NCBI GenBank assembly: GCA_001443495.1
Contig: LDXR01000007.1
Span: forward strand, 51,398 to 115,397
Direction: 5' to 3'
Length of the DNA stretch: 64,000 bases
Source: a candidate division NC10 bacterium CSP1-5
Lineage (GTDB): Bacteria; Methylomirabilota; Methylomirabilia; Methylomirabilales; CSP1-5
Under the pieces are notes generated by a model. That model was not told where the DNA came from, ran no database searches, and saw nothing but the letters and a program-made list of their open reading frames with translations. Of this stretch, positions 503-51,187 are shown one piece after another. How positions within the stretch are numbered: the first letter of the stretch is position 1; every line of letters starts with the position of its first letter. Position numbers and translations under genes: made by a program.

Positions 503-521
503 CAGGCGCGGACCCTCAGGT

Positions 522-2195: not shown

Positions 2196-2208
2196 CGTGA
2201 CTGTCTCC

Positions 2209-3398: not shown

Positions 3399-3419
3399 GG
3401 CTTCCCCGTTCCTCCGCTG

Positions 3420-4016
3420 CTACTGCACTCGGACGTGGCCGGTCGCGGGTGCAATCGAGATCTGCCGCGTCTGTCCTGTACTGTCTTTGGTAATCACGAG
3501 AGGGCTCACCCCATCAAAGCACTGAGTGAGCGGCATGCACATCTTCCCGGAGGAGTCGAATCCCGCGTAAAATGGGGGGTTACTCCCGGTCCCGCTGTTG
3601 TCGAGTTGAATGCCTGGATAGCTCGCGGCGAGGTTGATCCATGCCCCCACGAACAAGTCCGCCGTCTGCTGCGGGGTGTCCGCCTCGGCCGGCCAGGCGA
3701 TCGCAGGCGTGCGGCGGCCCTCCACGCGATACCGGTTAGCGTTGGCCCCGCCGCGCCGGTCGCGGCCGCGGATCCGGTACTCCCATCGGGTGGTCACCGC
3801 CTTTGACCGGGCCAGGCGCATGTCTCCCACCACCTGTCTCACCGCCGCGCTAAACCTGGCGCTTTCCACACTGGTCATCATGACCGGTAGGCCGGCCCCC
3901 ACCAGGATAACAGCCAAGGCCACTGCCCCTACCATCTCAATGGCCGTGAACCCCTGGCTTCCCACGTGGCGGGTCCGTTTTCCTATCGGTCTTTTATTCT
4001 CAAGCCCTGTTCGCAT
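3420..4016 (-). CDS. FimT/GspH-like minor pilin
   Basis: The prepilin motif GSQG|FTAIEMVGAVALAVILV is followed by ...ARFSAAVRQVVGDMRLARSKAV, which is typical of the GspH/FimT family. Confidence 0.7.
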   Translation of the reverse strand: MRTGLENKRPIGKRTRHVGSQGFTAIEMVGAVALAVILVGAGLPVMMTSVESARFSAAVRQVVGDMRLARSKAVTTRWEYRIRGRDRRGGANANRYRVEGRRTPAIAWPAEADTPQQTADLFVGAWINLAASYPGIQLDNSGTGSNPPFYAGFDSSGKMCMPLTQCFDGVSPLVITKDSTGQTRQISIAPATGHVRVQ

Positions 4017-4043
4017 CGGTTACGTCCGACGGATGACTTGCCG

Positions 4044-5753
4044 TTAGGCCTGGGACCATCGGCCTTTCAAGGTGAGGATCCCCCGTGGCGTCCCGGGGGG
4101 AACGGTGGTGTTAAACAGCGTGTCATAGCCCCAGACGCGGTTGGGCGGGTTGTAGTAGTTGGTCCCCGAGTTTCCGCAGCAGCGCCAATCCCCGGTGGCC
4201 TGGTCGCTATGCCACAGGGCGATGATGGAGCCGTTGTAGGTGAAGGTGTCGCCGCTCCAGTTCTCGAGGAAGCGGATGAGGTTCTCTAACTGGCCGTTGC
4301 CCTGTCCCACCGCCGACTCGCTGTCGGGCCCGAGGGCGAAGGCCGCATTCACCGTCGTGTTCGTGGCCGGCCGGTTCGAGGTCACTTGATTGCCCTTCGT
4401 ATCCGAGTTATTCGGCCCCCAGTTGTTGGAGAGGACGGTGATGGCGTCGCCTAACACGGCCGCCGGGACCTTGTTCACCGTGTTGTAATTCCCCTGGATG
4501 TAGATCGGATTCTCGGAGACGACGGTGAACCCCTGGCTCGGGAGCTGGGTGCCGTTTACCAGGCGGACCCCCTTATCCACGCCATCCCGGGACACGTAGA
4601 GGATCCCGTTCGCCGGCGCCTTGCCGCAGGTCTGCAAGGTCCCGACGTTGACCTCGGTGACGGTCATGGTGGCCTCTTCACGCTTGTCGTAGAAGCTCTG
4701 GGTGGTGACGTTACAGCCCGAGATGTCGACGGGGTTATCGTTCTTATCCTTGGCCGTCGTGACCCCGGCCGTGTCCGTTGAGATCTTGAGGTCTGCCTGG
4801 TAATAGAGTTTGGCAGCTTGCATCGCGGCGGAGTCCGCGGCTATCCCCTTCTCGATCATCTGATGGGAAACGACATCCGGGTTGGCCGGATCGTAAAAGA
4901 GATCCGGAATCGGCGGGATGATCTCCTGGACCCCCATGGTGCTGTCCCGGAGGAGGCCGCCGAAGGTGCTCACCGCCGCATTCATCCATTGGAGAGGCGT
5001 CCACGGGTTATTGAAGTTTTGGTCGTACTCGTGATCGAAGTTGAGGGCCTGATACGCCCCGGCGGCATCCTTCATCTGGGGGTTGCTCCCCCGCGTCGTC
5101 GGATCGCGCTTGAGGTAACGATAGACGTCGCCGACCGTAGTCACGTACGAGTCGAACTGGGTGCTACTGTTGATGACATAAATGTTGCTGTTCGAATGGA
5201 CCCGGCCGTTAAAGGTCATGGGCGGGCCGGGCGCGATCTCCAGGTCCACCCCTCGCCCGTAGAGGACGCCGAACTGGAAGAGGGGGACCTCCATGTACTG
5301 GAAAACCTGGGTGAGCCGGGACCGGCTTCCCCGGGGCCCCCGCACCTCGGCGGTGATCTCGTAGTCGGTCGTCTGGGCGACGAGTCCCGCGTACGCGCCA
5401 CTGCTGATCGTCGTGGCGTACGGCGTGGGCCTGATGCGCTGCACCTGGAAAGTGTTGAAGGTGTAGTTCGGATCGGTCAGCGCAGGGGCGGCGAGGGCGG
5501 CAAGCTGCCAGTCGGCGGGGTTCGGAGCCCCGGCTAAGAGATTCCGGAGACTCACGATCCCCGACTCGAGCCCGGCCTCGGCCCCGTAGAAGGTCTGGGT
5601 CTGATTTCTATAGTTGCCGGCAATGGCATCCTCGGTCTGGGCCGTTGCAAGGAACGCTATCCCCTGGACCAACAAAACAGCCATGATCAGGAGAGTGGCC
5701 ACCAGGACCACCCCTCTTTGCTCGTTCACTGTGTGTGTAATCCGCCGTGTCAT
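4044..5753 (-). CDS. Large PilX-N-terminal-domain protein, first gene of the minor-pilin-like operon
   Basis: ATG 5753 is preceded by AAGGAG with a 7-nt spacer; the track's TTG at 5780 is less likely. The N-terminus is QRGVVLVATLLIMAVLLVQGIAFLATAQTEDAIAGNY (PilX_N-like). The remaining ~530 aa have no motif I recognise. Confidence 0.6.
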   Translation of the reverse strand: MTRRITHTVNEQRGVVLVATLLIMAVLLVQGIAFLATAQTEDAIAGNYRNQTQTFYGAEAGLESGIVSLRNLLAGAPNPADWQLAALAAPALTDPNYTFNTFQVQRIRPTPYATTISSGAYAGLVAQTTDYEITAEVRGPRGSRSRLTQVFQYMEVPLFQFGVLYGRGVDLEIAPGPPMTFNGRVHSNSNIYVINSSTQFDSYVTTVGDVYRYLKRDPTTRGSNPQMKDAAGAYQALNFDHEYDQNFNNPWTPLQWMNAAVSTFGGLLRDSTMGVQEIIPPIPDLFYDPANPDVVSHQMIEKGIAADSAAMQAAKLYYQADLKISTDTAGVTTAKDKNDNPVDISGCNVTTQSFYDKREEATMTVTEVNVGTLQTCGKAPANGILYVSRDGVDKGVRLVNGTQLPSQGFTVVSENPIYIQGNYNTVNKVPAAVLGDAITVLSNNWGPNNSDTKGNQVTSNRPATNTTVNAAFALGPDSESAVGQGNGQLENLIRFLENWSGDTFTYNGSIIALWHSDQATGDWRCCGNSGTNYYNPPNRVWGYDTLFNTTVPPGTPRGILTLKGRWSQA

Positions 5754-5824
5754 CTCTGGACTCCTTCGTCTGAGCCTCAATCCGTTAGACTCGGACCCTC
5801 GGAGGTTGTTTATGCCTGAGAGAA

Positions 5825-5840
5825 AGCAGGGGGTGTGCCA
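5825..5840 (-). promoter_or_regulatory. Sigma-54 (-24/-12) promoter for the minor-pilin-like operon
   Basis: The minus strand reads TTGGCACACCCCCTGCTTT. This gives TGGCAC-N5-CTGC with exact GG/GC spacing, about 70 nt upstream of ATG 5753. Confidence 0.6.
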
Positions 5841-5946
5841 AGGACCTCCGTGTAATTAAGTGATTGATTTATATGGGGAAACAGGCCTATCGCGTTGATG
5901 GCGGCGGGAGAGAGAAAGGGAAAAAACGAGCCACAATGTCAGGGGG

Positions 5947-7359
5947 TCAATTGAGGCTGGACTTTTTGTCAGGGAGGACGTTGTTCAGGCCGTAGGCTTT
6001 GATCTTGCGATACAGGGTCCGTTGAGAAATCCCCAGGAGACGGGAGGCGGCGGCCTTGTTCCCATTGACCTCTCGCATGGTGGCCAGCAGGGCCTGGCGC
6101 TCGATCACCTCCATGGAGGTCCCGACCGCAAAGGTCAGAGAGCGTTCTGAGGTGAGCTGCCGGAGGTTGCCGGGGAGGTGCTCTGGCCGGATCGCCTCGC
6201 CCCGGACCAATACCACCGCCCGCTCGATACAGTTTTCGAGTTCCCGGACATTGCCCGGCCAGTCGTAGTCCATGAGCAGCGCGAGCGCCTCCGGCGCGAT
6301 CTCCCGGACGTCCCGCTTGAGCCGCTTGCGGTACATCTCGAGGAAGTGCTCGGCCAGGAGGAGGATGTCCTCCCGGCGCTCCTTCAGCTCGGGCAGGTGG
6401 ACGCCGATGACGTTCAAGCGGTAATACAGGTCCGGCCGAAATCGCCCCGCCGCCATCGCCTGGGTCAGGTCCTGGTTGGTTGCGGCGACGATCCGGACAT
6501 CGACATTGATCGACTGCTCCCCCCCCACCGGCTTGACTTCCCCCTCCTGGATCGCGCGCAGGAGCTTGACCTGCATGCCGGGGCTGGTTTCACTGATCTC
6601 GTCGAGGAAGAGGGTCCCTCCATCCGCCTCCTTGAAGAGTCCCCGCTTGGTGGCGATGGCGCCGGTGAAGGAGCCGCGGAGGTGCCCGAACAGCTCGCTC
6701 TCGAGCAGGGTTTCGGTCAGCCCCCCGCAGTTGACGGCTAGGAAGGGGCGGTCCTTCCGGGGGCTGTGGAAGTGAAGCGCCCTGGCGATCAGCTCTTTGC
6801 CGGTCCCGGTCTTGCCCTGGATGAGGACCGTGGCCTCGCTCCCCTCGAGATCCGCGATGAGCCGGTAGATCTCCTGCATGCGGGGGCTCTTGCCCAGGAT
6901 ATTGTCGAACCGGTGCCGCTCCTCGAGCTGGCGCCGCAGGTAGAGGTTCTCTTGCCGCAGGTGCTGCTCCTCGATCGCCTGCTTGACCAGGTGCATGACC
7001 CGCTCGGTGGTCACCGGCTTGGTGAGGTACGCATAGGCCCCTATCTTGATGGCTTCGACGGCCGAGTCGATCGAGCCGTGGGCGGTGGTGATGATCACAG
7101 GCAGGCCAGGAAGGCTGGCCCGCACCGCCTTCAGGAACGCCAGGCCGTCCATACCCGGCATCACGAGATCGCTCATGACGAGATCGACGGGCACGGCCTG
7201 GAGGATGCCCAGGGCTTCCTTGCCGCCGGTCGCGGTGAGCACCTGATAGCCGTGGCTCCCCAGGATCGTTTGGAGCAGCTCCCGAGCGACGGCATCATCG
7301 TCCACCGCCAGGATCTTGATCTTCTTTGGATCGACCTTCACCCTTGGCTCCTGGGCCAT
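5947..7359 (-). CDS. Sigma-54-dependent response regulator (NtrC/PilR-type: REC + AAA+ + Fis-type HTH)
   Basis: REC domain: KILAVDDD...DLVMSDLVMPGMDG. Walker A is GKTGTGKE. A GSFTGA variant stands in for GAFTGA. GGTLFLDEISE and WPGNVRELEN are present, and the C-terminus carries the HTH AAASRLLGISQRTLYRKIK. The start is uncertain (ATG 7359, or up to 7464). Confidence 0.9.
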   Translation of the reverse strand: MAQEPRVKVDPKKIKILAVDDDAVARELLQTILGSHGYQVLTATGGKEALGILQAVPVDLVMSDLVMPGMDGLAFLKAVRASLPGLPVIITTAHGSIDSAVEAIKIGAYAYLTKPVTTERVMHLVKQAIEEQHLRQENLYLRRQLEERHRFDNILGKSPRMQEIYRLIADLEGSEATVLIQGKTGTGKELIARALHFHSPRKDRPFLAVNCGGLTETLLESELFGHLRGSFTGAIATKRGLFKEADGGTLFLDEISETSPGMQVKLLRAIQEGEVKPVGGEQSINVDVRIVAATNQDLTQAMAAGRFRPDLYYRLNVIGVHLPELKERREDILLLAEHFLEMYRKRLKRDVREIAPEALALLMDYDWPGNVRELENCIERAVVLVRGEAIRPEHLPGNLRQLTSERSLTFAVGTSMEVIERQALLATMREVNGNKAAASRLLGISQRTLYRKIKAYGLNNVLPDKKSSLN

Positions 7360-36918: not shown

Positions 36919-38070
36919 TCAACTGACCCATGGCCACAGGAGCCGCCCGACGACGGCACCCCCGAGCACGAGCCAGGTCGCGTTCACCCGCCAGCGCAGG
37001 CCGGCCCCCGCCGCCGCCAGCGCGATGACCCAGGCGGGCCAGCTGGTGAGCGTCGAGACCGAGAGTTTCACCGTGACGGCCGCCATCAATGCCAGCGAGC
37101 TTACGTTCACCGCGTCGAGGAAGGCCGCCATCCATCGCGATCGTCGCAGCCGGGGCAACACGAGACCGAGCGCGGCGACGAAGATGAAGGACGGGAGAAA
37201 GATACCCGCCGTCGCCACCACCGCGCCGGGCAGTCCCCCGAGGATGTAGCCGATGAAGGTAGCCGTGCTGAGCACCGGGCCCGGCGTGAGCTGGCCGATG
37301 GCGATCGCATCGAGAAGCTGCGCCTCGTTGAGCCAACCGTAATCCCGGACGAGCCCGCCCTCGAGGAACGCCACCAAGACGTAGCCGCTCCCGTACAGCA
37401 CCGCCCCGACCTTCAGGAAAAACAACCCGAGTTTTACGAGCGAGACGCTCGCCGCCGCTGCACTTCCACCCCCCGCGGCCGCAACGATGCCCGTCGCGGG
37501 TGCGGAGATCCACGCAAGGAGCGCAAGGCTGCCGGCTCGCCCGAGCCACAGCATGCCGATCACGCCCCCGAGGAGCAGGAGGACAATCTCGTCCCACCCG
37601 ACGAGCGACGCGACCGCCACGGCGCATCCGAGACTCAGAAGCGGCATCCCCTTGGCGGCGCTTCGGCCCAGCCGCCACACGGCGGCGAGGATGATGGCGA
37701 TCAGCGCCGGCTTGATCCCGAACAGGAAAGGGACAACCCGGGGCAGCGTGCCGAACGTGACGTAGGCCCAGGCGAAGCCGGTCGTGATCAGCACGGCAGG
37801 GATGATGAAGCAGAGACCTGCGATGAGGAGGCCGGCCCATCCGGCCCGGAGGTACCCGACGTGGATGGCCATTTCGGTCGAGTTTGGCCCGGGGATCAGG
37901 TTGGTCGCGCCCACGAGGTCCAGAAAGTGCTCGCGGGTGAGCCAGCGGCGGCGCTCGACCACCTCCTCTTCCATCATGGCGATGTGCGCCGCGGGGCCGC
38001 CGAAGCCGATCAGGCCGAGCTTCAGGAATAGGCGTGCCAGCTCCGCGAGTCGCCCAGGTGGTGTCTCCAT
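36919..38070 (-). CDS. chrA: Chromate ion transporter (CHR family)
   Basis: FLKLGLIGFGGPAAHIAMMEEEVVERRRWL and ...PGPNSTEMA are present, and the motif is duplicated in the second half (FFLKVGAVLYGSGYVLVAFL). Confidence 0.9.
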   Translation of the reverse strand: METPPGRLAELARLFLKLGLIGFGGPAAHIAMMEEEVVERRRWLTREHFLDLVGATNLIPGPNSTEMAIHVGYLRAGWAGLLIAGLCFIIPAVLITTGFAWAYVTFGTLPRVVPFLFGIKPALIAIILAAVWRLGRSAAKGMPLLSLGCAVAVASLVGWDEIVLLLLGGVIGMLWLGRAGSLALLAWISAPATGIVAAAGGGSAAAASVSLVKLGLFFLKVGAVLYGSGYVLVAFLEGGLVRDYGWLNEAQLLDAIAIGQLTPGPVLSTATFIGYILGGLPGAVVATAGIFLPSFIFVAALGLVLPRLRRSRWMAAFLDAVNVSSLALMAAVTVKLSVSTLTSWPAWVIALAAAGAGLRWRVNATWLVLGGAVVGRLLWPWVS

Positions 38071-38088: not shown

Positions 38089-39432
38089 TCAGCTTCCGTG
38101 AGGAATGGGGTGGGCTGATTGCCGAACCTCGGTCGGACGCCGCTCGGGAAGTGTCTCGTACATGCGGAGGGCCACGATAAGCCCCGACAGGAGCGTCAGG
38201 GCGGCCACGACATGAATGGCGGCGGCCATCCCGAGGAGATCGGCAATCAGACCGGCCAATAGCGCCCCTATAGCATATCCCAGATCGCGCCAGAAGCGAT
38301 AGACCCCCATGGAGGTGGCCCGCCAGCCCGCATGGGCAACATCGCTGATAGCTGCCAGCAGGACCGGGTACACCATCGCCGTCCCCAGGCCCTGCAAAAC
38401 CGCGGCAAGAATCCACCACGAATACGTGGGAACAAGCACTGTTAACCAGATGCCGACGGCCTGCACTCCCATCCCCCCCGCAATGAGCCACTTCCGGCCG
38501 AGGCGATCGCTCAGTGGGCCCGTGATGGGTTGGAGCAGTCCCCACACCGCGGGATAGACCGCCTTGATGATCCCGATGGCAGCCACGCCCAGGCCATGCG
38601 AGGAGAAGAAGAGCGGGTAAATTCCCCAAGACATCCCATCATTGAGGTTGTTGACCAGACCAGCTTGACTACAGGATGAAAGCGCCCGTTCCTTCCAGGA
38701 GGTCAGCGCAAAAATCTCCTTAACCGAGGGGTGCCTCGCCCCAGGATTGTCAGAACTCGCTGATGTAAGGGCGGGCGCGTGAGATGTATGCTGCCGTGCC
38801 TCGAACCGAGCATAATCGATGGTCTCCCGGACAAACAACACAGAGCAGACCAGGCCTAACGCGGCGATGCCGATGCCCAGGTAGAAGGGCTCCGGGCGGA
38901 GGGAGTAGGCGGCGGCGATCTCACCCGTGACGTATGCCATGGTGCCGACGGCAAGATAACCTGCGAACTCGTTCAGGCCGAGGGCAAGTCCGCGCCGCTT
39001 GGGGCCCACCAGGTCCACCTTCATAATCACCGTCATGGACCAGGTCAGGGCCTGGTTGATGCCGAGCACGATGTTGGCAACATCGAACCAGATCCAGCGG
39101 TTGGCGTAAATGATAATGAAAGGGACCGGCAGTCCGATGATCCAGCCCAGGACTAGCACGCGCTTGCGTCCCCAGGATTCGGAGATCCGGGCGGCGAAGA
39201 AGTTGCAGATGGCCTTGACGATGCCGAAGCTGATGATGAAGGAGACGATGGCGGTCTTCGAGGCGAGGCCGAACTCCTGCTCACCGATCAACGGCACGAC
39301 GGTCCGCTCGAGCCCGACCATAGATCCCACGAAGGCCGTGATCAGGACCAAGAGCGAGAACTGGCCTATGTTCTCCCGGAGGCCGAGGCGTAGCTCGGCT
39401 GCAGGACGCTTCACATCGGCATTCCCACTCAC
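38089..39432 (-). CDS. MFS transporter
   Basis: The profile suggests about 12 TM segments. The MFS loop motif is ISESWGRKRVLVLG. Confidence 0.9.
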   Translation of the reverse strand: MSGNADVKRPAAELRLGLRENIGQFSLLVLITAFVGSMVGLERTVVPLIGEQEFGLASKTAIVSFIISFGIVKAICNFFAARISESWGRKRVLVLGWIIGLPVPFIIIYANRWIWFDVANIVLGINQALTWSMTVIMKVDLVGPKRRGLALGLNEFAGYLAVGTMAYVTGEIAAAYSLRPEPFYLGIGIAALGLVCSVLFVRETIDYARFEARQHTSHAPALTSASSDNPGARHPSVKEIFALTSWKERALSSCSQAGLVNNLNDGMSWGIYPLFFSSHGLGVAAIGIIKAVYPAVWGLLQPITGPLSDRLGRKWLIAGGMGVQAVGIWLTVLVPTYSWWILAAVLQGLGTAMVYPVLLAAISDVAHAGWRATSMGVYRFWRDLGYAIGALLAGLIADLLGMAAAIHVVAALTLLSGLIVALRMYETLPERRPTEVRQSAHPIPHGS

Positions 39433-39435
39433 GGC

Positions 39436-40173
39436 TCAGGTCTCGCCGCGATTCTTGCACCGAATGGTGGCAAACTCGGGGGGCTGCGAGGGCAAGTTCT
39501 CGAGCATGAATCGCACGAACTCGGCCTTTGGCCGGGGCTTCAGCGCCGGATTGAACCGCCGCTCGAATCCCAGCGTGGAGCTAGGATTGCCGCTCATCGC
39601 GCGACCGCAGGCCGAGCCGGCGAAGTGGGTCGGATAGAGCGCCAGCGCGTCATCAAGTGGAGCGAGCTTGATGAAGAGGCTGTCGTAGAGCTGTTCAGCG
39701 AGCACCCGGGACTCTTCGGGGCCATGGAGGTCTGGGCGGCCGGCGTCCCCGACGAAGAGGGTGTCCCCGGTCAAGAGGAGCCAAGGTTCGGGACCTCTGG
39801 TCTTGTCGGTCACGAGCAGGCAGATGCTGTCAGAGGAATGACCCGGCGTGTGGAGGACCCGCACCTTGACGTTGCCCAGCTCAAGCTGGTCCCCATCTTT
39901 CAACGGTTGGAAGGGAAAATGCGCCTGCGCAGCCCCGTGGAGGTAAATAGGGGCGCCCGTCTTCGCCGCCAGCTCGCGGCAGCCGGAGAGGTGATCCGCG
40001 TGAATGTGGGTCTCGATGATATGCGTGATCCGCATTCGGCTTCTCTCGCTGGCCTCGAGATACTGATCGATCTCCTGCTGTGGATCCACCACAGCTGCAG
40101 AGGCTCTTCCGCCTCACCCGAAGAGATATGAGGCACAGCCGGTCTCTGGTCTGAGGAATTGCCTGAAAATCAT
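39436..40173 (-). CDS. MBL-fold hydrolase (persulfide-dioxygenase-like) with an in-frame UGA at codon 20; candidate selenoprotein
   Basis: ATG 40173 lies 5 nt after AGGAGG. The frame reads MIFRQFLRPETGCASYLFG-TGA(40116..40114)-GGRASAAVVDPQQ... and continues directly into the track ORF 39436..40092. The metal motif is HIHADH. A hairpin follows the UGA, and selA is in the window. Confidence 0.65.
40072..40100 (-). promoter_or_regulatory. SECIS-like hairpin downstream of the MBL-gene UGA
   Basis: The mRNA forms CUGCAGCUGUGG-UGGAU-CCACAGCAGGAG. Ten of 12 positions pair, with 7 contiguous apical bp. The hairpin starts 13 nt after the UGA. Confidence 0.45.
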
Positions 40174-40585
40174 TGTGGCCTCCTGTGCCGTCTGCCTCGG
40201 GGCCACTGAAATTCAGTGTCCCTTCTGTCGTCATTTTCAACAGCCACATACTATTGGTCAAATCAATAATATAAACATTTCTGATTGCTTTTACGAATAC
40301 ATATTTAACTATTTGGAATAAAAGATTTTTATTATCATAAAGGCTCTGTTGCAGAAGGAATTTTGGCGAGCCTGGCATGGTGGAGGAGGGGAAAGTAAGG
40401 AGCAAGGGACCGAGAGCGACGCGAAGAGTGCTTATAAACCACTTACCGAAAGCATTGTCGTTTTAGCGGCGTGGTTTGCGGGAAAGGGGCGATTCACGCA
40501 TCCCTCGGGTTAAAAGAGGGGAATCATACATCAGTTGTCGTCCGTCTAATACGGTGAGGCACAATTGGACCCAAGAACCTTCGGT

Positions 40586-40600
40586 TGGCACGCCGCTTGC
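40586..40600 (+). promoter_or_regulatory. Near-consensus sigma-54 (-24/-12) promoter
   Basis: TGGCAC-GCCGC-TTGC matches TGGCAC-N5-TTGC exactly. Confidence 0.55.
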
Positions 40601-40642
40601 TAACTTGGCATGATGAAGCGTGGCACAAGGAGGCTGACGGAA

Positions 40643-40783
40643 ATGCTATTCTGCGCTTCATGCAAAATCTGGGTTCAGCCGATCCAATGGGTCGCCTACA
40701 TGCTGAATGGCTTGTTGGATATACACCAGGCGTGCCCTTGCTGCCACGATAAACTCCAGCAGCGCGAACCCGCCACTGTATAA
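40643..40783 (+). CDS. Possible 46-aa Cys-rich micro-protein
   Basis: AAGGAGG lies 9 nt before the ATG, and the ORF starts ~40 nt downstream of the sigma-54 promoter. The sequence is MLFCASCKIWVQPIQWVAYMLNGLLDIHQACPCCHDKLQQREPATV (CxxC...CxCCH). I recognise no homology. Confidence 0.35.
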   Translation: MLFCASCKIWVQPIQWVAYMLNGLLDIHQACPCCHDKLQQREPATV

Positions 40784-40925
40784 ACCACCTACGTCTGTCC
40801 TCCACACCGTCCTGTATCATTCCCAGCCACTGCAGCCTTTTTGAGCATCCTGCACCAACGGTGCTCCGGATTGTAGCGAGGCTCTTGCACCGAACGATGG
40901 CGGAGAGAGGGCGGTATGCCCTGTA

Positions 40926-44525: not shown

Positions 44526-45320
44526 CTAATCTTTTTTTGGCGCTGGACCCTTCGCCCGGCGGTCCAGGACCTGCTTGGCGGCCCGGGAGACCGCGGCAGG
44601 GATGTTGCGATCGCTGGCCAAGAACTTGAGTTCCCTGTCGGTGAGATTGGGAAGCCCGAGAGCCAACGAGACCCCCACGGGAGTTTTCGGATTGTGGAGG
44701 AGGCCGGTGATCACCAATTTGTTGGCCCGGAAGCGCCGGATGTTGGCGATGGCCCTGAGGACTTTATCGGAGATATCCCGCATTTGCGCGATAATGGCAA
44801 TCTCCTCGTCGCTGATGCGCGGGCTGTTCACCACCTCGAGGGCGATCATGTCGTTGGGGTCCTTGATCAGGATCATCCGCGCGTCCTTATTCCCCTTCTT
44901 CGCCAGGGCCAGCTTCTGCCCCGTGTTCATCTCCCGGATCAACTGCACGAGGGTCTTCTTGCGCTCGCGCTCTTCTTTCGTGGTTTCGTGCAGGATCCAT
45001 TGCACTCTGCGGCGGTCCGTCTCGGTCAGGCCGGGGTTCTTGAGGAGGGCATGGCCCACGACGGGGTTGTGAAAGATGAAGACCCGATCCTCCAGCAGTT
45101 GGGCCGCCACCGAAGCCGGCGCCCGTTCCGCCATATAGATAATGGCGGGGAGGGGGGTCAGGGGATTCGCGACGAGGAGCTTCCAGAGTTCTTCATCATC
45201 GGGGAATTGGGCGGGCAACTCCTCGAGGAGCTGGGGCTCTATCTCTTGCGATTGGGCGAGGCGGGTAGCCTCATCGCGGGTGAGCGCGGACGGAGTCGGA
45301 GTGGCGCTCGGATCGCTCAT
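44526..45320 (-). CDS. Conserved hypothetical helical-repeat protein, translationally coupled to selA
   Basis: Its ATGA overlaps the selA stop. The sequence has repeated ...NP.TP... helical units. I recognise no catalytic motif. Confidence 0.7.
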   Translation of the reverse strand: MSDPSATPTPSALTRDEATRLAQSQEIEPQLLEELPAQFPDDEELWKLLVANPLTPLPAIIYMAERAPASVAAQLLEDRVFIFHNPVVGHALLKNPGLTETDRRRVQWILHETTKEERERKKTLVQLIREMNTGQKLALAKKGNKDARMILIKDPNDMIALEVVNSPRISDEEIAIIAQMRDISDKVLRAIANIRRFRANKLVITGLLHNPKTPVGVSLALGLPNLTDRELKFLASDRNIPAAVSRAAKQVLDRRAKGPAPKKD

Positions 45321-46753
45321 GAGCTCAGCTCATCTGCAAGTATTGGACCGACGGCGCCGATCAAAAGCCCCACCTCGTCCTCGCGGACAGTTCGCATATC
45401 GAGGAGAACCTTTTCCCCTTTGATGCGCGCCACCACAGCCGGCTCTGCTTCCCTGAGCAGGGCCTCCAGTCGATGCGGGGACACCTCGGACCTCTGAAGC
45501 GCGACGCAATACGTGGGGAGGCCCTGGGCAGGAAGCGCCCCCCCTCCCACCTCAGACCACTGCTCCTCGACGGTCACGCGGACCGAGGGATGTGCCCGCG
45601 CCTGCAAGCCCGCGCGCACCCGCTCGGCGCGCTGCTCGATCTCGTGGAGCGGGCAGGCGATCATGGCCAGGGCGGGAATGGCACCGAGACCCTTCTCCCC
45701 TTCTAGGTAGGCCCGGAGGGTAGCCTCGAGGGCCGCGAGGGAGAGTTTGTCGATGCGCACCGCTCGCGCCAGCGGGTTTTTCCGGAGGCGCTCGATCATC
45801 AGCTTTTTCCCTACGATGAGCCCCGCCTGGGGCCCTCCGAGGAGCTTGTCTCCGCTGAACGCGATCAGATCCACCTCACTCCGAAGGGTCTCCTGGACGG
45901 TGGGCTCCCCCTTGAGGCCGAATGGGGCGAGATCGGCGATGGCGCCGCTGCCCATGTCGATCATCACCGGGAGGGCCCGGCGCCGGCCCAGCGCCACCAG
46001 GTCCGCGAGGGGGACGTCGCTGGTAAAGCCGAGAATCCGAAAGTTGCTGGGGTGCACCTTCAGGAGCAGGGCTGTCCTCTCCCCGATCGCATCTTCGTAG
46101 TCTTTGAGGCGGGTCCGGTTCGTGGTGCCCACCTCCCTGAGAACCGCCCCCGCCTTTCGCATGACGTCCGGGATTCGGAAGGAGTCTCCGATCTCGATCA
46201 ACTCCCCTCGGGAGACCACCACCTCGCGGCCTTCGGCGAGCGTATTGATGCTCAGCAGGACGGCGGCAGCGTTGTTGTTTACCGCAAGGGCCCCCTCGGC
46301 TCCCGTGAGGCGGGTGAGAAGGCCCTGTATATGCCCTTGCCGAGAGCCTCTGGCGCCTCTGGGGAGATCGAATTCTAAGGTCGAGTAGTGCTGCGCGACC
46401 TCGTGGAGGCGGGCCAGCGCCTCAGGAGACAGAGGGGCCCGGCCGAGGTTCGTATGGAGGATGACCCCGGTGGCGTTGATCACCCGGCGCAGGCTTGGGC
46501 GGGCCAGGTGCAGGGTCTTGCGGCACACCTGCGCGAGGAGTGTGGAAAGATCGGGGACGAAAGTCTCGATCCCCTCGCGGAGGAGGGCTAGAATCTTTTG
46601 TCGGCGCTCCTCGAGGGTCTCCCGGACCGCCTCGATCACCGTCCACCGGGGATACGCCTCGAGGAGTTTCTGGATGACCGGCTCCTGGAGGAGTTCGTCG
46701 ACCGACGGAATCTGGCGGAGGAGGAGGCCCGCCTGGTGCTCTGGAATAGCCAT
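45317..46753 (-). CDS. selA: L-seryl-tRNA(Sec) selenium transferase
   Basis: VINATGVILHTNLGRAPL, STLEFDLPRGARGSR, VNNNAAAVLL, VVSRGELIEIGDSFRIPDVM, VGTTNRT, KVHPSNF and FSGDKLLGGPQAG (PLP lysine) are present. Confidence 0.93.
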   Translation of the reverse strand: MAIPEHQAGLLLRQIPSVDELLQEPVIQKLLEAYPRWTVIEAVRETLEERRQKILALLREGIETFVPDLSTLLAQVCRKTLHLARPSLRRVINATGVILHTNLGRAPLSPEALARLHEVAQHYSTLEFDLPRGARGSRQGHIQGLLTRLTGAEGALAVNNNAAAVLLSINTLAEGREVVVSRGELIEIGDSFRIPDVMRKAGAVLREVGTTNRTRLKDYEDAIGERTALLLKVHPSNFRILGFTSDVPLADLVALGRRRALPVMIDMGSGAIADLAPFGLKGEPTVQETLRSEVDLIAFSGDKLLGGPQAGLIVGKKLMIERLRKNPLARAVRIDKLSLAALEATLRAYLEGEKGLGAIPALAMIACPLHEIEQRAERVRAGLQARAHPSVRVTVEEQWSEVGGGALPAQGLPTYCVALQRSEVSPHRLEALLREAEPAVVARIKGEKVLLDMRTVREDEVGLLIGAVGPILADELSS

Positions 46754-46821
46754 GTGCGGCCTCGTGTGCTCTTTGTATCATACCCTCCGAGCCCCGCGCA
46801 ACGCAAATTGGCGCGGGGACC

Positions 46822-46849
46822 GGAAAACCAAAAGCCACCCGGAGGTGGC
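46822..46849 (-). terminator. Rho-independent terminator (minus strand)
   Basis: The minus strand forms GCCACC-UCCG-GGUGGC followed by UUUUGGUUUUCC. Confidence 0.6.
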
Positions 46850-46988
46850 TCTTGGTCGGTGCTTCTTCCGCCTAGCGCCGTTCCAACTTTTCTCACCCAA
46901 TACACGGGTGTGCGATGCCAAGGCCCAAGCCTGCTGGCCGCCTTGGCCCGTTCCCTGGCTGGAACGGGCGCAATAACCTGGAACGGCA

Positions 46989-47291
46989 CTAGGAGAGTTC
47001 GTGGACCGCCCCTGCCCGTCTGGCCTGATAGCACGGCTTGCAATAGACCGGGCGGTCCGGCATAGGTCTGAAAGGGACGGTCGTCCGTTGGCCACACTGG
47101 GAGCAGACCGCTTCGAAGATCTCCCTGGGACCGGCGCTGACCCCGCCCCCCTTTCTCATCGCCTTACAACTCTTGCACCGTTTGGGTTCGTTGGTGAATC
47201 CCTTCTGGGCGAAGAACTCCTGCTCACCCGCCGTAAAGGCGAATTCTTTGCCGCAATCTACACATACCAAAATCTTATCTTGCAAGGCCAT
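46989..47291 (-). CDS. CxxC-x17-CxxC zinc-ribbon protein
   Basis: ILVCVDCGKEFAFTAGEQEFFAQKGFTNEPKRCKSC and ...AVCSQCGQRTTVPFRPMPDRPVYCKPC are present. I chose ATG 47291. Confidence 0.75.
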   Translation of the reverse strand: MALQDKILVCVDCGKEFAFTAGEQEFFAQKGFTNEPKRCKSCKAMRKGGGVSAGPREIFEAVCSQCGQRTTVPFRPMPDRPVYCKPCYQARRAGAVHELS

Positions 47292-47378
47292 GGGTTTCCT
47301 CCTCGATAGGCATCCATCGTCCTGGTCCTTCGAGCCCTGCGAAACCTTCAAGGTCCCATCCACCCCTCCTTTGTCTGC

Positions 47379-48524
47379 TCACCTTCGAACCCCCAAGCGG
47401 GGAAAGACCAGCTCCTGAACGCGGCCCACCTGGGTTCGTGCATAGTGCCATGCCTCCTCCTTCCGCGGCCCTTCGGTCCGGTACGGGGCGTCGGCGAGGG
47501 AGGTCTCTGTGCATCCCTCGGCCCGAAACTGGGGGAGAAAGGCGGCCGGAAGTTCGGGACCGACCTCGATTCCCGCCATGAGGGCCCAGACCGCAGTCCA
47601 GGCGCGGGGAACGTTCCCCAGGTGGTAGCCTCCACCTCCGAGGGCGAGCCAGCGGGGGGCACTCTCGGCGAGGATCGCGACGGCCCTGAGGAAGCCCTGC
47701 ATCGTCAGTCGCAGATGGGACAAGGGGTCACTCCGGTGGGCGTCGATCCCCAACTGGGTGACGACCACATCCGGACGAAACGTCTCGAGAAGAGGAGGGA
47801 CGGTCTCCTCGAATGCCCAGATGAAGATCTCGTCATCGGTCTCGGGGGCGAGGGGCACATTGACCGAAAATCCCTCGCCCTTCCCGGTCCCGATCTCCTC
47901 CGGGAAGCCGGTGCCAGGAAAGAGGGTGAGACCGGTCTCATGCAGCGAGATGGTCAGCACCTGATCCGTGTCGTAGAAGGCGTCTTGGACTCCGTCTCCA
48001 TGGTGCGCATCGATGTCCACATAGGCTACCCGCAGCCCGTGGTCGATCAACAAGCGGATGGCCACGGCGGCGTCGTTGATATAGCAGAAGCCCGAGGCGC
48101 GACCGGATGCGGCGTGGTGGAGGCCTCCCGCGATGTTGAAGGCGCGCGGGGTCTCGCCGGCCGCGAGCAGCCGGGCCGCTTCGAGCGACGCCCCGGTAAG
48201 GAGGGTGGACCAGGCGTACACGCCCTCAAAGATGGGATTATCGCTGGTGCCGAGGCCGAAGTGCCAGGAGCGGGGGACCGAGACCCCTGCACTCGCCGCC
48301 CGGAGGACGTCCAGGTACTCTTTCGTGTGGATGCGGCGGAGCTCATCTTCGGTGGCGGTCGGGACGTCGGCCAATCGGGTATGGGCAGAATGAAAGAGGC
48401 CGTAGGCGTGGATGAGATCATGGGTGTGCGTCAGGCGGCGGATCTTCATGGGGTGGCTGGGACCGTAGTCAAACTCCCGGTACTTCTGGGTGTAGAAGAA
48501 AACGGCCTGGGTCGCGTTGGTCAT
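47379..48524 (-). CDS. Histone deacetylase-family (AcuC/Hda-type) deacetylase
   Basis: GGLHHAASGRASGFCYINDAAVA and ...VDIDAHHGDGVQDAF are present. Confidence 0.85.
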   Translation of the reverse strand: MTNATQAVFFYTQKYREFDYGPSHPMKIRRLTHTHDLIHAYGLFHSAHTRLADVPTATEDELRRIHTKEYLDVLRAASAGVSVPRSWHFGLGTSDNPIFEGVYAWSTLLTGASLEAARLLAAGETPRAFNIAGGLHHAASGRASGFCYINDAAVAIRLLIDHGLRVAYVDIDAHHGDGVQDAFYDTDQVLTISLHETGLTLFPGTGFPEEIGTGKGEGFSVNVPLAPETDDEIFIWAFEETVPPLLETFRPDVVVTQLGIDAHRSDPLSHLRLTMQGFLRAVAILAESAPRWLALGGGGYHLGNVPRAWTAVWALMAGIEVGPELPAAFLPQFRAEGCTETSLADAPYRTEGPRKEEAWHYARTQVGRVQELVFPRLGVRR

Positions 48525-48567
48525 CTCCGGTTGCCTTCTGGAGCGAGGAACCTTAACGCACAGAGGG

Positions 48568-49056
48568 TCAATCCTTTTCGCCCGGGCGGCGATACGTGCC
48601 ACTCCTTCCCCCACGCTTGGAAACGAGTCGGATATTCTCGATGGTCATCTCTTTGTCTCGAGCCTTGCACATGTCATAGATCGTGAGGGCTGCCACCGAG
48701 ACGGCCGTGAGCGCCTCCATTTCGGCTCCGGTCTTGCCATGCACCTTCACCCGGGACTCGATCTCGATCGTTCCCCGGTCTGCGTCGGGGCTAAAGGTGA
48801 CCTCGGCGGAGGTGATCAGGAGGGGATGGCAGAGTGGGATGAGGCGATCGACTCCCTTGGCGGCCATGATCCCGGCCACGCGGGCCACAGCCAACACATC
48901 CCCCTTGGGGATCGATTTGTCGAGAATCATCCGAAGGGTTTCAGGTTTTAGACGGATGGTGCCTCGGGCCGTCGCGTCTCGGGTGGCGTCAGCCTTTTCG
49001 CTGATATCCACCATCCGGGCTCTGCCCAGGGGATCCAGATGGGATAACGGTTGCAT
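48568..49056 (-). CDS. moaC: Cyclic pyranopterin monophosphate synthase
   Basis: LSHLDPLGRARMVDISEK, ...KGDVLAVARVAGIMAAK and ...IPLCHPL are present. Confidence 0.95.
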   Translation of the reverse strand: MQPLSHLDPLGRARMVDISEKADATRDATARGTIRLKPETLRMILDKSIPKGDVLAVARVAGIMAAKGVDRLIPLCHPLLITSAEVTFSPDADRGTIEIESRVKVHGKTGAEMEALTAVSVAALTIYDMCKARDKEMTIENIRLVSKRGGRSGTYRRPGEKD

Positions 49057-49282
49057 CTTGGGCCTGCGTATGACGCCGCATGATGGCGTACATTTCGTCC
49101 TTGATCTTGAGTTTGAGTTTCTGCAGCTCTTTGCGCTTGCGCTCTTGATCGCTGGTCAGGTAATAGATCCGATCGAACTCCATGATCTTGCGATCAAACT
49201 CTCTATGCTTTTCGGCGAGGCGGCGGAATTCGGTATCTTCCTCCTTCAGCCGCGCAAAGAGCTGCGCCTCGGTTTCATTCAT
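48989..49282 (-). CDS. DUF465 (YdcH-like) coiled-coil protein
   Basis: LKEEDTEFRRLAEKHREFDRKI and ...QKLKLKIKDEMYAIM are present. The 3' tail overlaps the moaC start by 68 nt in another frame. Confidence 0.7.
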   Translation of the reverse strand: MNETEAQLFARLKEEDTEFRRLAEKHREFDRKIMEFDRIYYLTSDQERKRKELQKLKLKIKDEMYAIMRRHTQAQDATVIPSGSPGQSPDGGYQRKG

Positions 49283-49492
49283 ATGTAACCTCCTTTCGCA
49301 GAGCAGAGATTCTTCCCGGTAAGGGCAAGCGCTTTTGGATAGAGGGGGACGAAGGCTGGGTGGGCACGTAGACCCTGCATCGGCAGGCTAAAGCGTCCGA
49401 CCTGAGTCATATCCCCTACGGCGTGTGTCACGTACAGACCAGGGCAGTAGGCTAGTGAAAACCGCCGGGAAAGTCAAGAAGAAAAATGGGGG

Positions 49493-50488
49493 TTAGAGGG
49501 GTTTGACCGCCGTACTCTTGAATGTGATGTAAACCCGGGCGCCGATGGCAAGGCCAAGCTCCTGGAACGACTGCTGCGTCACGCGGACGGTGAAGGGCTC
49601 CCCCGCCTCCACGGCGACGTCGAGCACCCCTTCTGCGTGTTCTTCAATCCGGGTCACGCGTCCTTTAAACGCGTTACGGGCGCTCGACTGGAGCGGCTCC
49701 TGGGAGAGCAGGATCTCATCGGGACCGATGGAGATATGCCCGGTCGTGGACAAGCCGGGAGGGACGGCGATGCGCACCTTGCCGGTGTCGAACAAGGCGG
49801 TCTCCCCATTGGTGAGGAGCCGCCCGGTAAAGAGGTTTTCGTACGGGGACGGCGAGGGGCGGCCATCTCTCAGGACCACGACGTCGCGGGCCAGCCGGTG
49901 GGCCAGGCGCCCGTCATGGGTACTGAATATCAGGGTCTGTCCCCGTTCCTCCCTCGCTCGGAATACCTCCTCCAACGCCTTGGCCGTTATCTGATCCACG
50001 TTGGCAAGGGGTTCGTCGAGGAGAAGGACCTCCGGGTCCAGGACTAACGCCCTGGCAATGGCCACCCGCTTTTCTTCGCCCCCCGAAAGCTCTCGAGCCC
50101 TCCGCTTCTGAATATCGGCGCACCCCACCAGGGTCAAGGCTTGCCCAACCCGTTGCTGAATCTCCGCCCGAGGGACGCCGCGAGCTCTGAGGCCGAAAGC
50201 GACGTTCTCCAGCACCGTCGTGTCAAAAAGGAGGGGGTTCTGGTGAAGCAGGCAGACCTTTTGGCGATGGCGCGCGAGATGCTCCGAAGTTATCGGCTCG
50301 CCCTCGTAGGTCACCGTGCCGCGGACGGGATCCATCAGTCCTGCAAGCACTCTGAGAAGCGTGGTCTTCCCCGCCCCATTGGGACCCATGACGGCGGTGC
50401 TTGAGCCTGCCCTGATAGCGAGGCTCTCGATCGACAGCGCCATTCGGGCACCGTATCTCACTTCGATGTTGCGGAGCATGAAGGGCAT
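49493..50488 (-). CDS. tupC: Tungstate/molybdate-type ABC transporter ATP-binding protein with a C-terminal TOBE/Mop domain
   Basis: Walker A is GPNGAGKTT, the signature is LSGGEEKRVAIARA and Walker B is LLLDEP. The C-terminus is TOBE-like. Confidence 0.8.
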   Translation of the reverse strand: MPFMLRNIEVRYGARMALSIESLAIRAGSSTAVMGPNGAGKTTLLRVLAGLMDPVRGTVTYEGEPITSEHLARHRQKVCLLHQNPLLFDTTVLENVAFGLRARGVPRAEIQQRVGQALTLVGCADIQKRRARELSGGEEKRVAIARALVLDPEVLLLDEPLANVDQITAKALEEVFRAREERGQTLIFSTHDGRLAHRLARDVVVLRDGRPSPSPYENLFTGRLLTNGETALFDTGKVRIAVPPGLSTTGHISIGPDEILLSQEPLQSSARNAFKGRVTRIEEHAEGVLDVAVEAGEPFTVRVTQQSFQELGLAIGARVYITFKSTAVKPL

Positions 50489-50497
50489 GAGGGACGC

Positions 50498-51187
50498 CTA
50501 TCGTCTCCGGACTAGCAGCCTAACGACAACGTTGGTCACGAGGGAAAAAAGGATGAGGATCACGCCGAGGGCGATGGCAAAGGCGAACTCGCCTTTCCCC
50601 GTCTCCAAGACTATCGCGGTGGCCAAGGTCCGGGTGTATCCCCGGATGTTCCCGCCGACCATGAGGGCGGATCCCACTTCCGCCACCACTCGGGCGAAGC
50701 CGGCCAGGACCGCGGCGGCGACCGCGTATCGGGCCTCCAGGATCACCATGAGCGCGGCTCGCGGGCGGGAGGCTCCCAGGGTGAGTCCGGTCTCCCGAAC
50801 CCTTGGATCCACGCCCGTGAGGGCGGCGACGGCCAGGGCGATCACAATGGGGATGGCGAGGATGAACTCGCCGATGACAATAGCGGTCGGGGTGAAGAGG
50901 AGTTGGAGATCACCGAGCGGGCCTTGGCGAGAGAGGAAGGCGAAGACCGAGAGCCCCACCACCACGGTGGGCAGGGCCATCAGAGTGTTGATCAGGGTGA
51001 TCAGGCCCTCCTTGCCTCGGAAGTTTCCCTCCACGAGGAGGACCGCGCAGGGGATCCCAGCGGCCGAGGCCAGAAGGGTCGCGCCGAGGGACACCTGAAG
51101 AGTGAGCCAGGTGATCTGATACACCTCGGGGTTAAGGGTGGCGATGAGGGTGCCCGCTTGCAGCAGACCTTCCAGTAGAAAATCCAT
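50498..51187 (-). CDS. tupB: Tungstate ABC transporter permease
   Basis: This is an ABC permease with about 5 TM segments. ATG 51187 lies 7 nt after the tupA stop. Confidence 0.8.
   Translation of the reverse strand: MDFLLEGLLQAGTLIATLNPEVYQITWLTLQVSLGATLLASAAGIPCAVLLVEGNFRGKEGLITLINTLMALPTVVVGLSVFAFLSRQGPLGDLQLLFTPTAIVIGEFILAIPIVIALAVAALTGVDPRVRETGLTLGASRPRAALMVILEARYAVAAAVLAGFARVVAEVGSALMVGGNIRGYTRTLATAIVLETGKGEFAFAIALGVILILFSLVTNVVVRLLVRRR

Follow-up and report, generated by a model that had tools for sequence, protein, structure and literature searches.

An in-frame UGA as a candidate selenocysteine codon in a CstB-type, persulfide dioxygenase-like gene of the NC10 bacterium CSP1-5

Introduction

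Does a UGA codon near the 5' end of a bacterial gene stop translation, or is it read as selenocysteine (Sec)? The question is raised by a metallo-beta-lactamase (MBL)-fold gene in a 64,000-nt stretch of DNA from the candidate division NC10 bacterium CSP1-5 (Methylomirabilota; assembly GCA_001443495.1, contig LDXR01000007.1, positions 51,398 to 115,397 of the forward strand), which we refer to as the window and in which all coordinates given without a locus name are counted. A mechanical list of open reading frames (ORFs) places the start of this gene at GTG 40092, and the same frame continues upstream, through one TGA, to an ATG at 40173. An earlier sequence-only reading of the window had taken the ATG for the start and the TGA for a candidate Sec codon in a hydrolase that resembles persulfide dioxygenases (PDOs).

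Here, we studied this gene together with its homologues in public genomes and metagenomes. Comparison of these sequences leads us to conclude that it is very probably a genuine selenoprotein gene. The explanation that we favour, and consider likely as a whole, is that it encodes a Sec-containing dioxygenase of the type of Staphylococcus aureus CstB, without the rhodanese domains of that enzyme, by way of the standard bacterial mechanism directed by a selenocysteine insertion sequence (SECIS).

Results

The frame on both sides of the UGA is translated

Translation from ATG 40173 gives a frame of 245 sense positions, with the TGA at 40116..40114 (codon 20) as its sole interruption. The coordinates in the sequence-only reading were verified, both for this frame and for the ATG with an AGGAGG 5 nt upstream and the GTG opening of the ORF list, and the upstream ATG is the real start (Table 1). 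The Lactamase_B domain of Pfam covers residues 11-183 of the joined protein. In an AlphaFold2 model (predicted local distance difference test score, pLDDT, 88; predicted template modelling score, pTM, 0.88), beta-strands lie at residues 3-8 and 13-18, upstream of residue 20, so that the 218-residue form that begins at GTG 40092 would be without beta-strands 1 and 2, a loss that had been foreseen. The peptide that precedes the TGA, MIFRQFLRPETGCASYLFG, is a near residue-for-residue match to the N-termini of full-length homologues (MIFRQILHPxTGCASYxFGC), which bears out its description as a normal N-terminus of this subfamily.

Codon usage within the window's clade provides a further constraint. 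Among seven distinct sequences that share the window's type of downstream hairpin (class A, see below), 12 of the 19 amino-acid columns upstream of the UGA are invariant, and 10 of these 12 columns use two to five synonymous codons. Because amino acids are kept while synonymous sites vary, the 19 upstream codons are translated in this frame. Sites of the GGAGG type precede the homologous ATG in several related loci (L001, L004, L005, L010, L161, L082 and L093; L numbers denote the fetched loci). Coding conservation is thus found on both flanks of the UGA, the 3' side comprising a full MBL domain.

Table 1. Coordinates of the features discussed, in the window unless a locus is named
Feature	Position	Strand	Basis or remark
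Shine-Dalgarno sequence AGGAGG	40184..40179	minus	read directly; 5-nt spacer before ATG 40173..40171
Candidate selenoprotein coding sequence	39436..40173	minus	ATG 40173..40171, terminal TGA 39438..39436; 245 residues, proposed Sec at position 20
19 codons 5' of the UGA	40117..40173	minus	encode MBL-fold beta-strands 1-2; peptide MIFRQFLRPETGCASYLFG
In-frame UGA, codon 20, proposed Sec codon	40114..40116	minus	aligns with Cys20 of S. aureus CstB
SECIS-like hairpin core GCUGUGG-UGGAU-CCACAGC	40077..40095	minus	7 bp, 5-nt loop UGGAU
Predicted Fe(II) facial triad His56 / His112 / Asp137	40008..40006, 39840..39838, 39765..39763	minus	alignment to 3R2U
Cys189-Gly190	39604..39609	minus	equivalent to CstB mobile-loop C201-G202; AGSACGR vs AGSPCGK
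MFS transporter gene, conserved partner	38089..39432	minus	4-nt gap 3' of the MBL gene; Pfam MFS_1 E=4.5e-46
ChrA-type chromate/oxyanion transporter gene	36919..38070	minus	PF02417 E=3.9e-82, TIGR00937; co-oriented, downstream
selA, L-seryl-tRNA(Sec) selenium transferase	45317..46753	minus	PF03841 E=2.3e-150, PF12390 E=3.3e-16
selD with in-frame TGA, locus L161	6826..7881	plus	motif read
selD with in-frame TGA, locus L082	1601..2647		motif read
selD with in-frame TGA, locus L093	2905..3957		motif read

Homologues carry cysteine or UGA at position 20

The pattern expected of a Sec codon, a column that alternates between UGA and cysteine, is evident in the homologues. All 22 full-length homologues in our alignment have Cys at column 20, within the motif FGC, as the sequence-only reading had supposed of relatives, and the motif SYLIGC that it gave is literally present in CstB (Protein Data Bank, PDB, entry 3R2U) and in many homologues. 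In a search space of 5.8 billion proteins, every homologue with 69-100% identity is annotated as a protein of ~218 residues that begins just 3' of the TGA, and homologues with 59-64% identity are full length. N-terminally truncated calls account for 54 of the 120 best database clusters; annotation pipelines therefore currently miss the Sec in these genes, which NCBI and JGI label as truncated "MBL fold metallo-hydrolase".

Within a set of 160 related loci from genomes and metagenomes, the codon at column 20 is TGA in 39 (the window included) and TGC or TGT in 21, and Ser, Ala or Asp is restricted to distant relatives. Nine more TGA loci (L161-L169) were recovered by way of the "truncated" database proteins. 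TGA carriers belong to Methylomirabilota, Pyrinomonadaceae, Terriglobia-like Acidobacteriota and unclassified metagenome-assembled genomes (MAGs), and a rough neighbour-joining tree distributes Sec forms over at least four clades, interspersed with Cys forms, which requires a minimum of five switches. Recurrence of TGA at one column in dozens of independent contigs exceeds chance.

A few individual loci depart from these patterns. L125 (metagenome contig VFSW01031486.1) is the sole Cys20 variant within a Terriglobia-like clade that otherwise has only Sec; past "SLSG" its C-terminal sequence is scrambled, its hairpin loop is CGUUU rather than CGUGU, and it is probably frameshifted or a pseudogene. 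The Cys20 form of L013 (Desulfobacteraceae bacterium Eth-SRB2) has an in-frame stop at ~6094 in the locus, at the Lys column of VVDPKRD (VVDP*TD), which may reflect an error, decay to a pseudogene or a further case of recoding. What looked like an additional stop in L123, at the Cys13 column, was rejected, as it reflects an ambiguous base (TNT).

A conserved hairpin follows the UGA

The core of the hairpin spans 18-36 nt 3' of the UGA, within the coding sequence, and an extended imperfect stem (40101..40071) begins 13 nt after the UGA. Bacterial SECIS elements, in the criteria of bSECISearch, are stem-loops directly 3' of the UGA with a loop ~16-37 nt downstream and a G in the loop; the hairpin agrees with this description in its 7-bp stem, a loop that begins 25 nt after the UGA, and the G residues of that loop. 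The exact 19-nt core has a single occurrence in the window and was found in 17 loci. Its six codons (GCT GTG GTG GAT CCA CAG) are identical in the seven distinct class A sequences, whose proteins are 54-100% identical, and among invariant amino acids invariant codons make up 6/6 in the hairpin vs 8/92 elsewhere (Fisher p=2.9e-6). The nearest Cys forms that encode A-V-V-D-P have only a 4-bp remnant (GUGG/CCAC), without the three outer pairs.

Other Sec clades have hairpins of two further classes, B and C, in both of which the loop begins 21 nt after the UGA. The loop of class B is a GGUC tetraloop, and class C consists of CGC-CGUGU-GCG on a GG/CC lower stem. RNAalifold finds all four pairs kept in 8/8 class B sequences and all five in 17/17 of class C; across the two classes, eight one-sided changes preserve pairing, a compensatory C-G to U-A pair occurs in three sequences, and no pair is broken. 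Synonymous sites in class C are also constrained (2/5 vs 1/95 invariant codons, p=0.006). The three classes, with their different registers, seem to follow host lineage.

Judged by this conservation of codons and pairs, the downstream hairpin is under selection. The sequence-only reading was thus right that a hairpin exists at the distance of a SECIS, but the ability to fold, which it had noted, is not above background. Across the 44 nt that follow codon 20, the best hairpin has a mean free energy of -9.6 kcal/mol in 35 Sec genes and of -10.3 kcal/mol in 21 Cys genes, and the Sec genes thus show no advantage in stability (Mann-Whitney p=0.89). Stems form just as readily in the Cys homologues in this GC-rich DNA, so that foldability does not count as evidence, and conservation does; we therefore rejected free energy as evidence for a SECIS and used the synonymous-site and pair-conservation tests instead.

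Sec machinery and the use of TGA

The window encodes selA on the same strand, 5 kb from the MBL gene, as had been noted from the sequence and is now verified with Pfam. We did not find selB beside selA, which is flanked by genes for a deacetylase and an ABC transporter and by unknown ORFs, and the absence of an adjacent selB implies that the Sec machinery is dispersed in this genome. More specifically, the region 5' of selA (46754..50500) holds, on the same strand, short unknown ORFs, a histone-deacetylase (HDAC)-family gene, and genes for a TOBE-domain ABC ATPase and a permease. In L161, L082 and L093, selD lies directly upstream of the orthologue of the MBL gene (~40 nt, same strand), and these selD genes have an in-frame TGA of their own in the canonical motif SFSHGAG-U-GCK (GAGUGCK), so that public gene calls show a truncated, 297-residue AIRS-domain protein.

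TGA is otherwise an ordinary stop codon here, as the sequence-only reading had also argued. It ends the MBL gene itself as well as six Pfam-verified genes in the window (MFS, ChrA, HAD, MetG, SelA and the HDAC-family deacetylase), and the codon has therefore not been reassigned across the genome. A Methylomirabilota MAG has been predicted to have 63 selenoprotein genes (2026 review, PMC13188914), and the lineage is thus Sec-rich. As a separate observation, the Sec-MBL gene of L163 has among its neighbours (406..6179, minus strand) genes for two DUF1573 proteins, a 50-residue YHS protein and an HMA/E1-E2 ATPase, families that are all in the 2022 selenoprotein catalogue (PMC9312934).

A stand-alone CstB-type protein

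The best sequence matches in the PDB are 3TP9 (E=2e-49) and 3R2U (E=4e-47), followed by canonical PDOs and then by glyoxalase II. Foldseek template modelling (TM) scores of the model show the same order: 0.91-0.93 to 3TP9/3R2U, 0.82-0.84 to canonical PDOs and 0.62-0.72 to glyoxalase II. The predicted iron ligands His56, His112 and Asp137 align to H56/H119/D145, the Fe ligands in CstB crystal structures (PMC12934615), and codons 56-61 encode the full HxHxDH motif. Residues G186, S187, C189, G190 and R191 are invariant in the alignment of 22 homologues, and the model is of low confidence over residues 181-200, in keeping with a dynamic loop. In CstB, the equivalent C201-G202 lies on a mobile loop that is specific to this enzyme and acts as a built-in glutathione mimic (2026 preprint, PMC12934615).

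No NCBIfam family scored above its threshold, and Pfam revealed no rhodanese domain in the protein, which ends at residue 245; it is therefore a CstB-like PDO domain rather than a CstB orthologue. Assignment to glyoxalase II was rejected (TIGR03413, 82.6 bits vs a cutoff of 200.8; PRK10241, 41 vs 421; fold nearer to PDOs). On sequence and predicted fold, we classify the protein as a stand-alone CstB-type (type III) PDO-like MBL-fold protein without rhodanese domains, which refines the PDO-like hydrolase of the sequence-only reading. That it also performs CstB-like PDO chemistry we regard as somewhat better than an even prospect.

Two further features vary among homologues. The window's clade has Cys at residue 13 (40135..40137; TGCASY), where CstB has Gln, canonical PDOs have Thr and the Terriglobia-like clade has Ala; the equivalent position in CstB belongs to the second-sphere hydrogen bonds that determine whether the chemistry leads to sulfite or to an S-sulfonate (PMC12934615). 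A clade of Sec forms (L005, L010, L011, L097, L115 and other Terriglobia-like loci, plus L093) has TG-H-TLMVGDLGRTE and PGA(F/Y) where the window has TG-D-TLFVGDAGRPD and P(T)HF. The clade thus has Asp137 replaced by His and His183 by Ala, which hints at an iron site with three His ligands, like that of cysteine dioxygenase.

Residue 20 and a proposed reaction scheme

The UGA aligns to Cys20 of CstB and, in the model, falls in the beta2-beta3 turn between strands 13-18 and 25-29. Cys20 of CstB carries a persulfide in solution and in one crystal form, and a sulfonate in a second crystal form, a modification described as of "significance unknown" (PMC12934615). Cys or Sec at position 20 co-occurs with the Cys-Gly loop in the fetched loci, and sequences with Asp or a gap at this position (ETHE1-type) are almost all without the loop. 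Evolution usually puts Sec only at redox-active cysteines, which, taken together with the recurrent exchange of Sec and Cys, argues that Cys20 of CstB-type enzymes is functional. Together, this exchange, the association with the Cys-Gly loop and the reactivity seen in CstB favour a functional role of residue 20 in redox chemistry or in carrying sulfur.

During CstB catalysis, oxidation at the iron turns the C201 persulfide into an S-sulfonate, which is carried ~27 A to the persulfidated rhodanese Cys408, where thiosulfate is released (PMC12934615). In the scheme that we propose for the window, translation would begin at ATG 40173 and UGA-20 would be read as Sec by Sec-tRNA(Sec)/SelB, recruited via the hairpin at 40095..40077, so that Sec20 would replace the sulfane-sulfur-accepting cysteine (CstB Cys20), at a site away from the iron. 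A low-molecular-weight persulfide would then load sulfur onto the loop residue Cys189, and Fe(II) and O2 would oxidise the Cys189 persulfide to an S-sulfonate, as shown for CstB. Because the rhodanese Cys408 is not present, Sec20 (as a selenolate or Se-S persulfide, possibly that of the partner subunit) is proposed as the resolving nucleophile that would release thiosulfate or sulfite, after which the co-encoded transporter of the major facilitator superfamily (MFS) may export the product. Selenium insertion, dioxygenase activity, the relay role of Sec20 and the substrate of the MFS transporter are all steps that we infer. A role of Sec20 as resolving or relay nucleophile for the oxidised loop cysteine in rhodanese-less enzymes is put forward only tentatively. 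The broader proposal is just as speculative, namely that residue 20 might be a second catalytic centre of CstB-type dioxygenases, at which Sec20 or Cys20 of the stand-alone enzymes, probably across the dimer, would replace the rhodanese cysteine, taking up sulfane sulfur and resolving the S-sulfonate on the loop Cys via an Se-S intermediate.

Genomic neighbourhood

The sequence-only reading had placed the MBL gene at the head of a co-oriented run with MFS and ChrA transporter genes. Both are present, but only the MFS gene is a conserved partner. An MFS homologue (41-78% identity) lies directly downstream in most fetched loci, with Sec, Cys or Ser forms and in many phyla; in L001, a methyltransferase gene takes its place. 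Among the fetched loci, ChrA neighbours the MBL gene in L082, L004 and L161 alone, in other orientations, and was rejected as a conserved partner, as was the HAD hydrolase gene. Between metG and the MBL gene, a 98-residue ORF (40524..40820, minus strand) without a Pfam or NCBIfam match is identical in L081 and was not found in the other fetched loci.

Genes upstream of the homologues lend some support to the link with sulfur or selenium that had previously been offered as speculation. They include a two-domain rhodanese gene (L165-168), DsrE-DsrE-DsrH genes (L161 and L093), the selD genes described above and, in other loci, divergent LysR or ArsR regulators, ArsR-type genes being found upstream of many homologues. 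In L172, the gene for an ArsR-type helix-turn-helix (HTH)-rhodanese fusion (139..807, plus strand), which may be a persulfide-sensing regulator, overlaps by 4 nt the start of a Cys-form MBL gene with 64% identity. A known arrangement of this kind is the BigR/Blh operon of Xylella and Agrobacterium, in which an ArsR-family repressor, the PDO-rhodanese Blh and a membrane anion exporter serve H2S detoxification; by analogy, the neighbourhood is consistent with a pathway in which sulfide or persulfide is oxidised and the resulting anion is exported.

Two further patterns were noted among the neighbours. UbiE-type S-adenosylmethionine (SAM) methyltransferase genes occur near the MBL gene in L001 (6872..7525, one gene directly downstream of the MBL gene), L170 (3866..5442, three in a row past the MFS gene) and L161 (2845..3432), and their recurrence may point to a connection with the methylation of chalcogens or metalloids. 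The selD-MBL-MFS slot beside a divergent LysR gene holds, in L093 vs L082/L161, MBL proteins that are only 56% identical, with selD and LysR at 79-86%. The L093 gene joins a class A N-terminus and hairpin to a protein body of the His type, a mosaic that suggests recombination, or a SECIS that tracks the host SelB rather than the protein clade.

Weighing the alternatives

Several observations weigh against the interpretation of this gene as a SECIS-directed, CstB-like selenoprotein gene, in addition to the equal stability of hairpins in Sec and Cys genes. The GUGG/CCAC part of the stem follows from the V-V-D-P codons and is also present in Cys forms, and the class A hairpin, which is that of the window, is conserved but without covariation. 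A search of Rfam, a SECIS covariance model having been suggested as a check, matched no SECIS family in the window at the gathering threshold or in 39950..40250 at E<=10, a result that we deem uninformative. No tRNA gene of any kind, tRNA-Sec included, and neither selB nor selD was found within the 64-kb window, and tRNA-Sec was not found in 17 related loci either. A scan of the window for in-frame TGA codons demonstrated no second selenoprotein gene; it returned 262 raw candidates, of which 41 were left after filtering for a Cys within 3 residues of the TGA, and these, judged as a set, all looked like non-coding frames. More distant MFS-linked homologues carry Ser, Asp or a gap at position 20, so this residue is not universally required. 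As for function, identity to CstB is only 35-38%, the HxHxDH motif (plus H183) would also permit a glyoxalase-II-like di-metal hydrolase, and in CstB some 29 A separate C20 and the iron of the opposite protomer (PMC12934615).

The alternatives differ in how much of the above they accept. A sequencing or assembly error at 40114..40116, or a pseudogene, has a practically negligible chance of being correct: a one-base change from TGC or TGT does give TGA, but the codon recurs in contigs from different samples that encode proteins of 53-100% identity, with intact frames on both sides and products of the correct length, and a database protein cluster 100% identical to the window's has 28 member sequences. 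It is scarcely more credible that the TGA is a genuine stop, with the protein starting at GTG 40092 and the 19 upstream codons a leader peptide or untranslated. This is what the mechanical ORF call and the annotation of the 54 truncated clusters imply; yet the protein would then be without two beta-strands that are present in every solved homologue, the upstream peptide is homologous to full-length N-termini and varies only at synonymous sites, and the strong Shine-Dalgarno sequence precedes the ATG and not the GTG, which itself lies inside the hairpin stem. Readthrough of the UGA by a standard amino acid (near-cognate Trp, Cys or Arg), or some other recoding without Sec, has more to commend it, in that fold and N-terminus conservation require full-length translation whichever residue is inserted, and selB and tRNA-Sec are missing from the regions named above. 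We nevertheless consider it quite improbable, given a column that is strictly Cys or TGA within the family with the Cys-Gly loop (the classic Sec/Cys signature), the conserved hairpin at SECIS distance, selA in the window and Sec-type selD beside orthologues, and the efficiency of TGA as a stop for six neighbouring genes.

Finally, the Sec could be real and the MBL-MFS module could serve selenium metabolism, moving or processing a selenium compound (selenopersulfide, selenotrisulfide) to feed SelD or to remove excess selenium. The adjacency of selD and a divergent LysR gene in L161, L082 and L093 speaks for such a role, as does the occupation of this slot by two such dissimilar MBL subtypes, and a selenium-linked LysR subfamily beside sel genes has been proposed (PMC5322559); nearby selA, ChrA in the window, and the UbiE-type neighbours point the same way. 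On the other hand, selD is adjacent in only three of ~40 Sec loci, all from closely related genomes, and a T-run after the selD stop means that the two genes may be separate transcripts. The MBL-MFS pair is also widespread in Cys and Ser forms, including those of Chitinophagaceae and Flavobacterium, and the closest characterised enzyme acts on sulfur persulfides. We therefore consider a dedicated role in selenium metabolism unlikely, and a Sec-containing, rhodanese-less dioxygenase of the CstB type remains our preferred reading.

Discussion

As far as searchable catalogues go, an MBL-fold, CstB-like selenoprotein family is new, in line with the statement of the sequence-only reading that this family was not known to contain selenoproteins; the SECIS-directed insertion of Sec is itself standard. 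The 87 prokaryotic selenoprotein families of the 2022 "complete list" include no entry for MBL-fold, Lactamase_B, COG0491 or dioxygenase (Table 1 of PMC9312934), and we found no mention of an MBL-fold, PDO or glyoxalase selenoprotein in the 2026 review, the Global Ocean Sampling (GOS) study, deep-Sep and its supplements, the Haft 2022 preprint, or the full-text literature searched. The present case would thus add the metallo-beta-lactamase fold, and a non-heme-iron persulfide dioxygenase, to the families that contain selenoproteins. It also documents a widespread, uncharacterised MBL-MFS gene pair, and the three SECIS variants, which apparently track host lineage, are useful for better prediction of bacterial selenoproteins.

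The exchange of Sec and Cys bears on a modification of CstB Cys20 that a 2026 structural study termed "of unknown significance" (PMC12934615), and gives a testable hypothesis both for this residue and for the way in which rhodanese-less CstB-like enzymes complete the catalytic cycle. If residue 20 is a second catalytic centre, this would explain the persulfidation and sulfonation of Cys20 in CstB crystals, and Sec20 would be the first selenocysteine to work with a non-heme iron dioxygenase.

Comparison with known systems

The hairpin resembles the bacterial SECIS of Escherichia coli fdhF in that it lies within the coding sequence directly 3' of the UGA, with a loop that starts 21-26 nt downstream across the classes and with G residues in the loop. 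The fdhF element has the apical loop GGUC, ~19-22 nt after the UGA, and is bound by SelB; class B relatives of the window's gene share this tetraloop, whereas the class A loop of the window is UGGAU, with no evident bulged U and no Rfam model match. With respect to function, the closest parallels among catalogued Sec proteins are those that handle sulfur, i.e., rhodanese-like sulfurtransferases, DsrE-like proteins and YeeE/YedE, in which Sec replaces a sulfane-sulfur Cys and Sec and Cys forms interchange among lineages, although their folds are unrelated to the one described here. As in the BigR/Blh system, a PDO-type MBL enzyme is encoded with a membrane transporter, and ArsR-type genes lie near many homologues. 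The transporter, however, is of the MFS and not of the TauE/SafE type, no regulator is adjacent in the window, and the match to the Blh model NF040641 is weak (score 50.6 vs a cutoff of 625; NCBIfam).

With canonical PDOs (human ETHE1, 4CHL; Myxococcus, 4YSB; Arabidopsis, 2GCU; BpPRF, 5VE3) the predicted protein shares the MBL fold, the HxHxDH motif, the His2Asp Fe site and an N-terminus of the MIFRQ type. Canonical PDOs differ in being without the Cys-Gly loop and in having Asp at the residue-20 column ("YLIGD"), and in their reaction glutathione persulfide binds directly and sulfite is the product (PMC12934615). In both sequence and fold, the protein is instead matched best by S. aureus CstB (3R2U, 28MT-28MY) and 3TP9 of Alicyclobacillus acidocaldarius: the iron triad and the Cys-Gly loop align with those of CstB, and position 20 is Cys in both 3R2U and 3TP9. 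Unlike CstB, the window protein is without the pseudo-rhodanese and catalytic rhodanese domains, and thus without the Cys408 that is essential for CstB turnover; it has, at residue 13, Cys in place of Gln and, at residue 20, a proposed Sec in place of Cys; and in place of the genes of the cst operon it has an MFS transporter as conserved partner.

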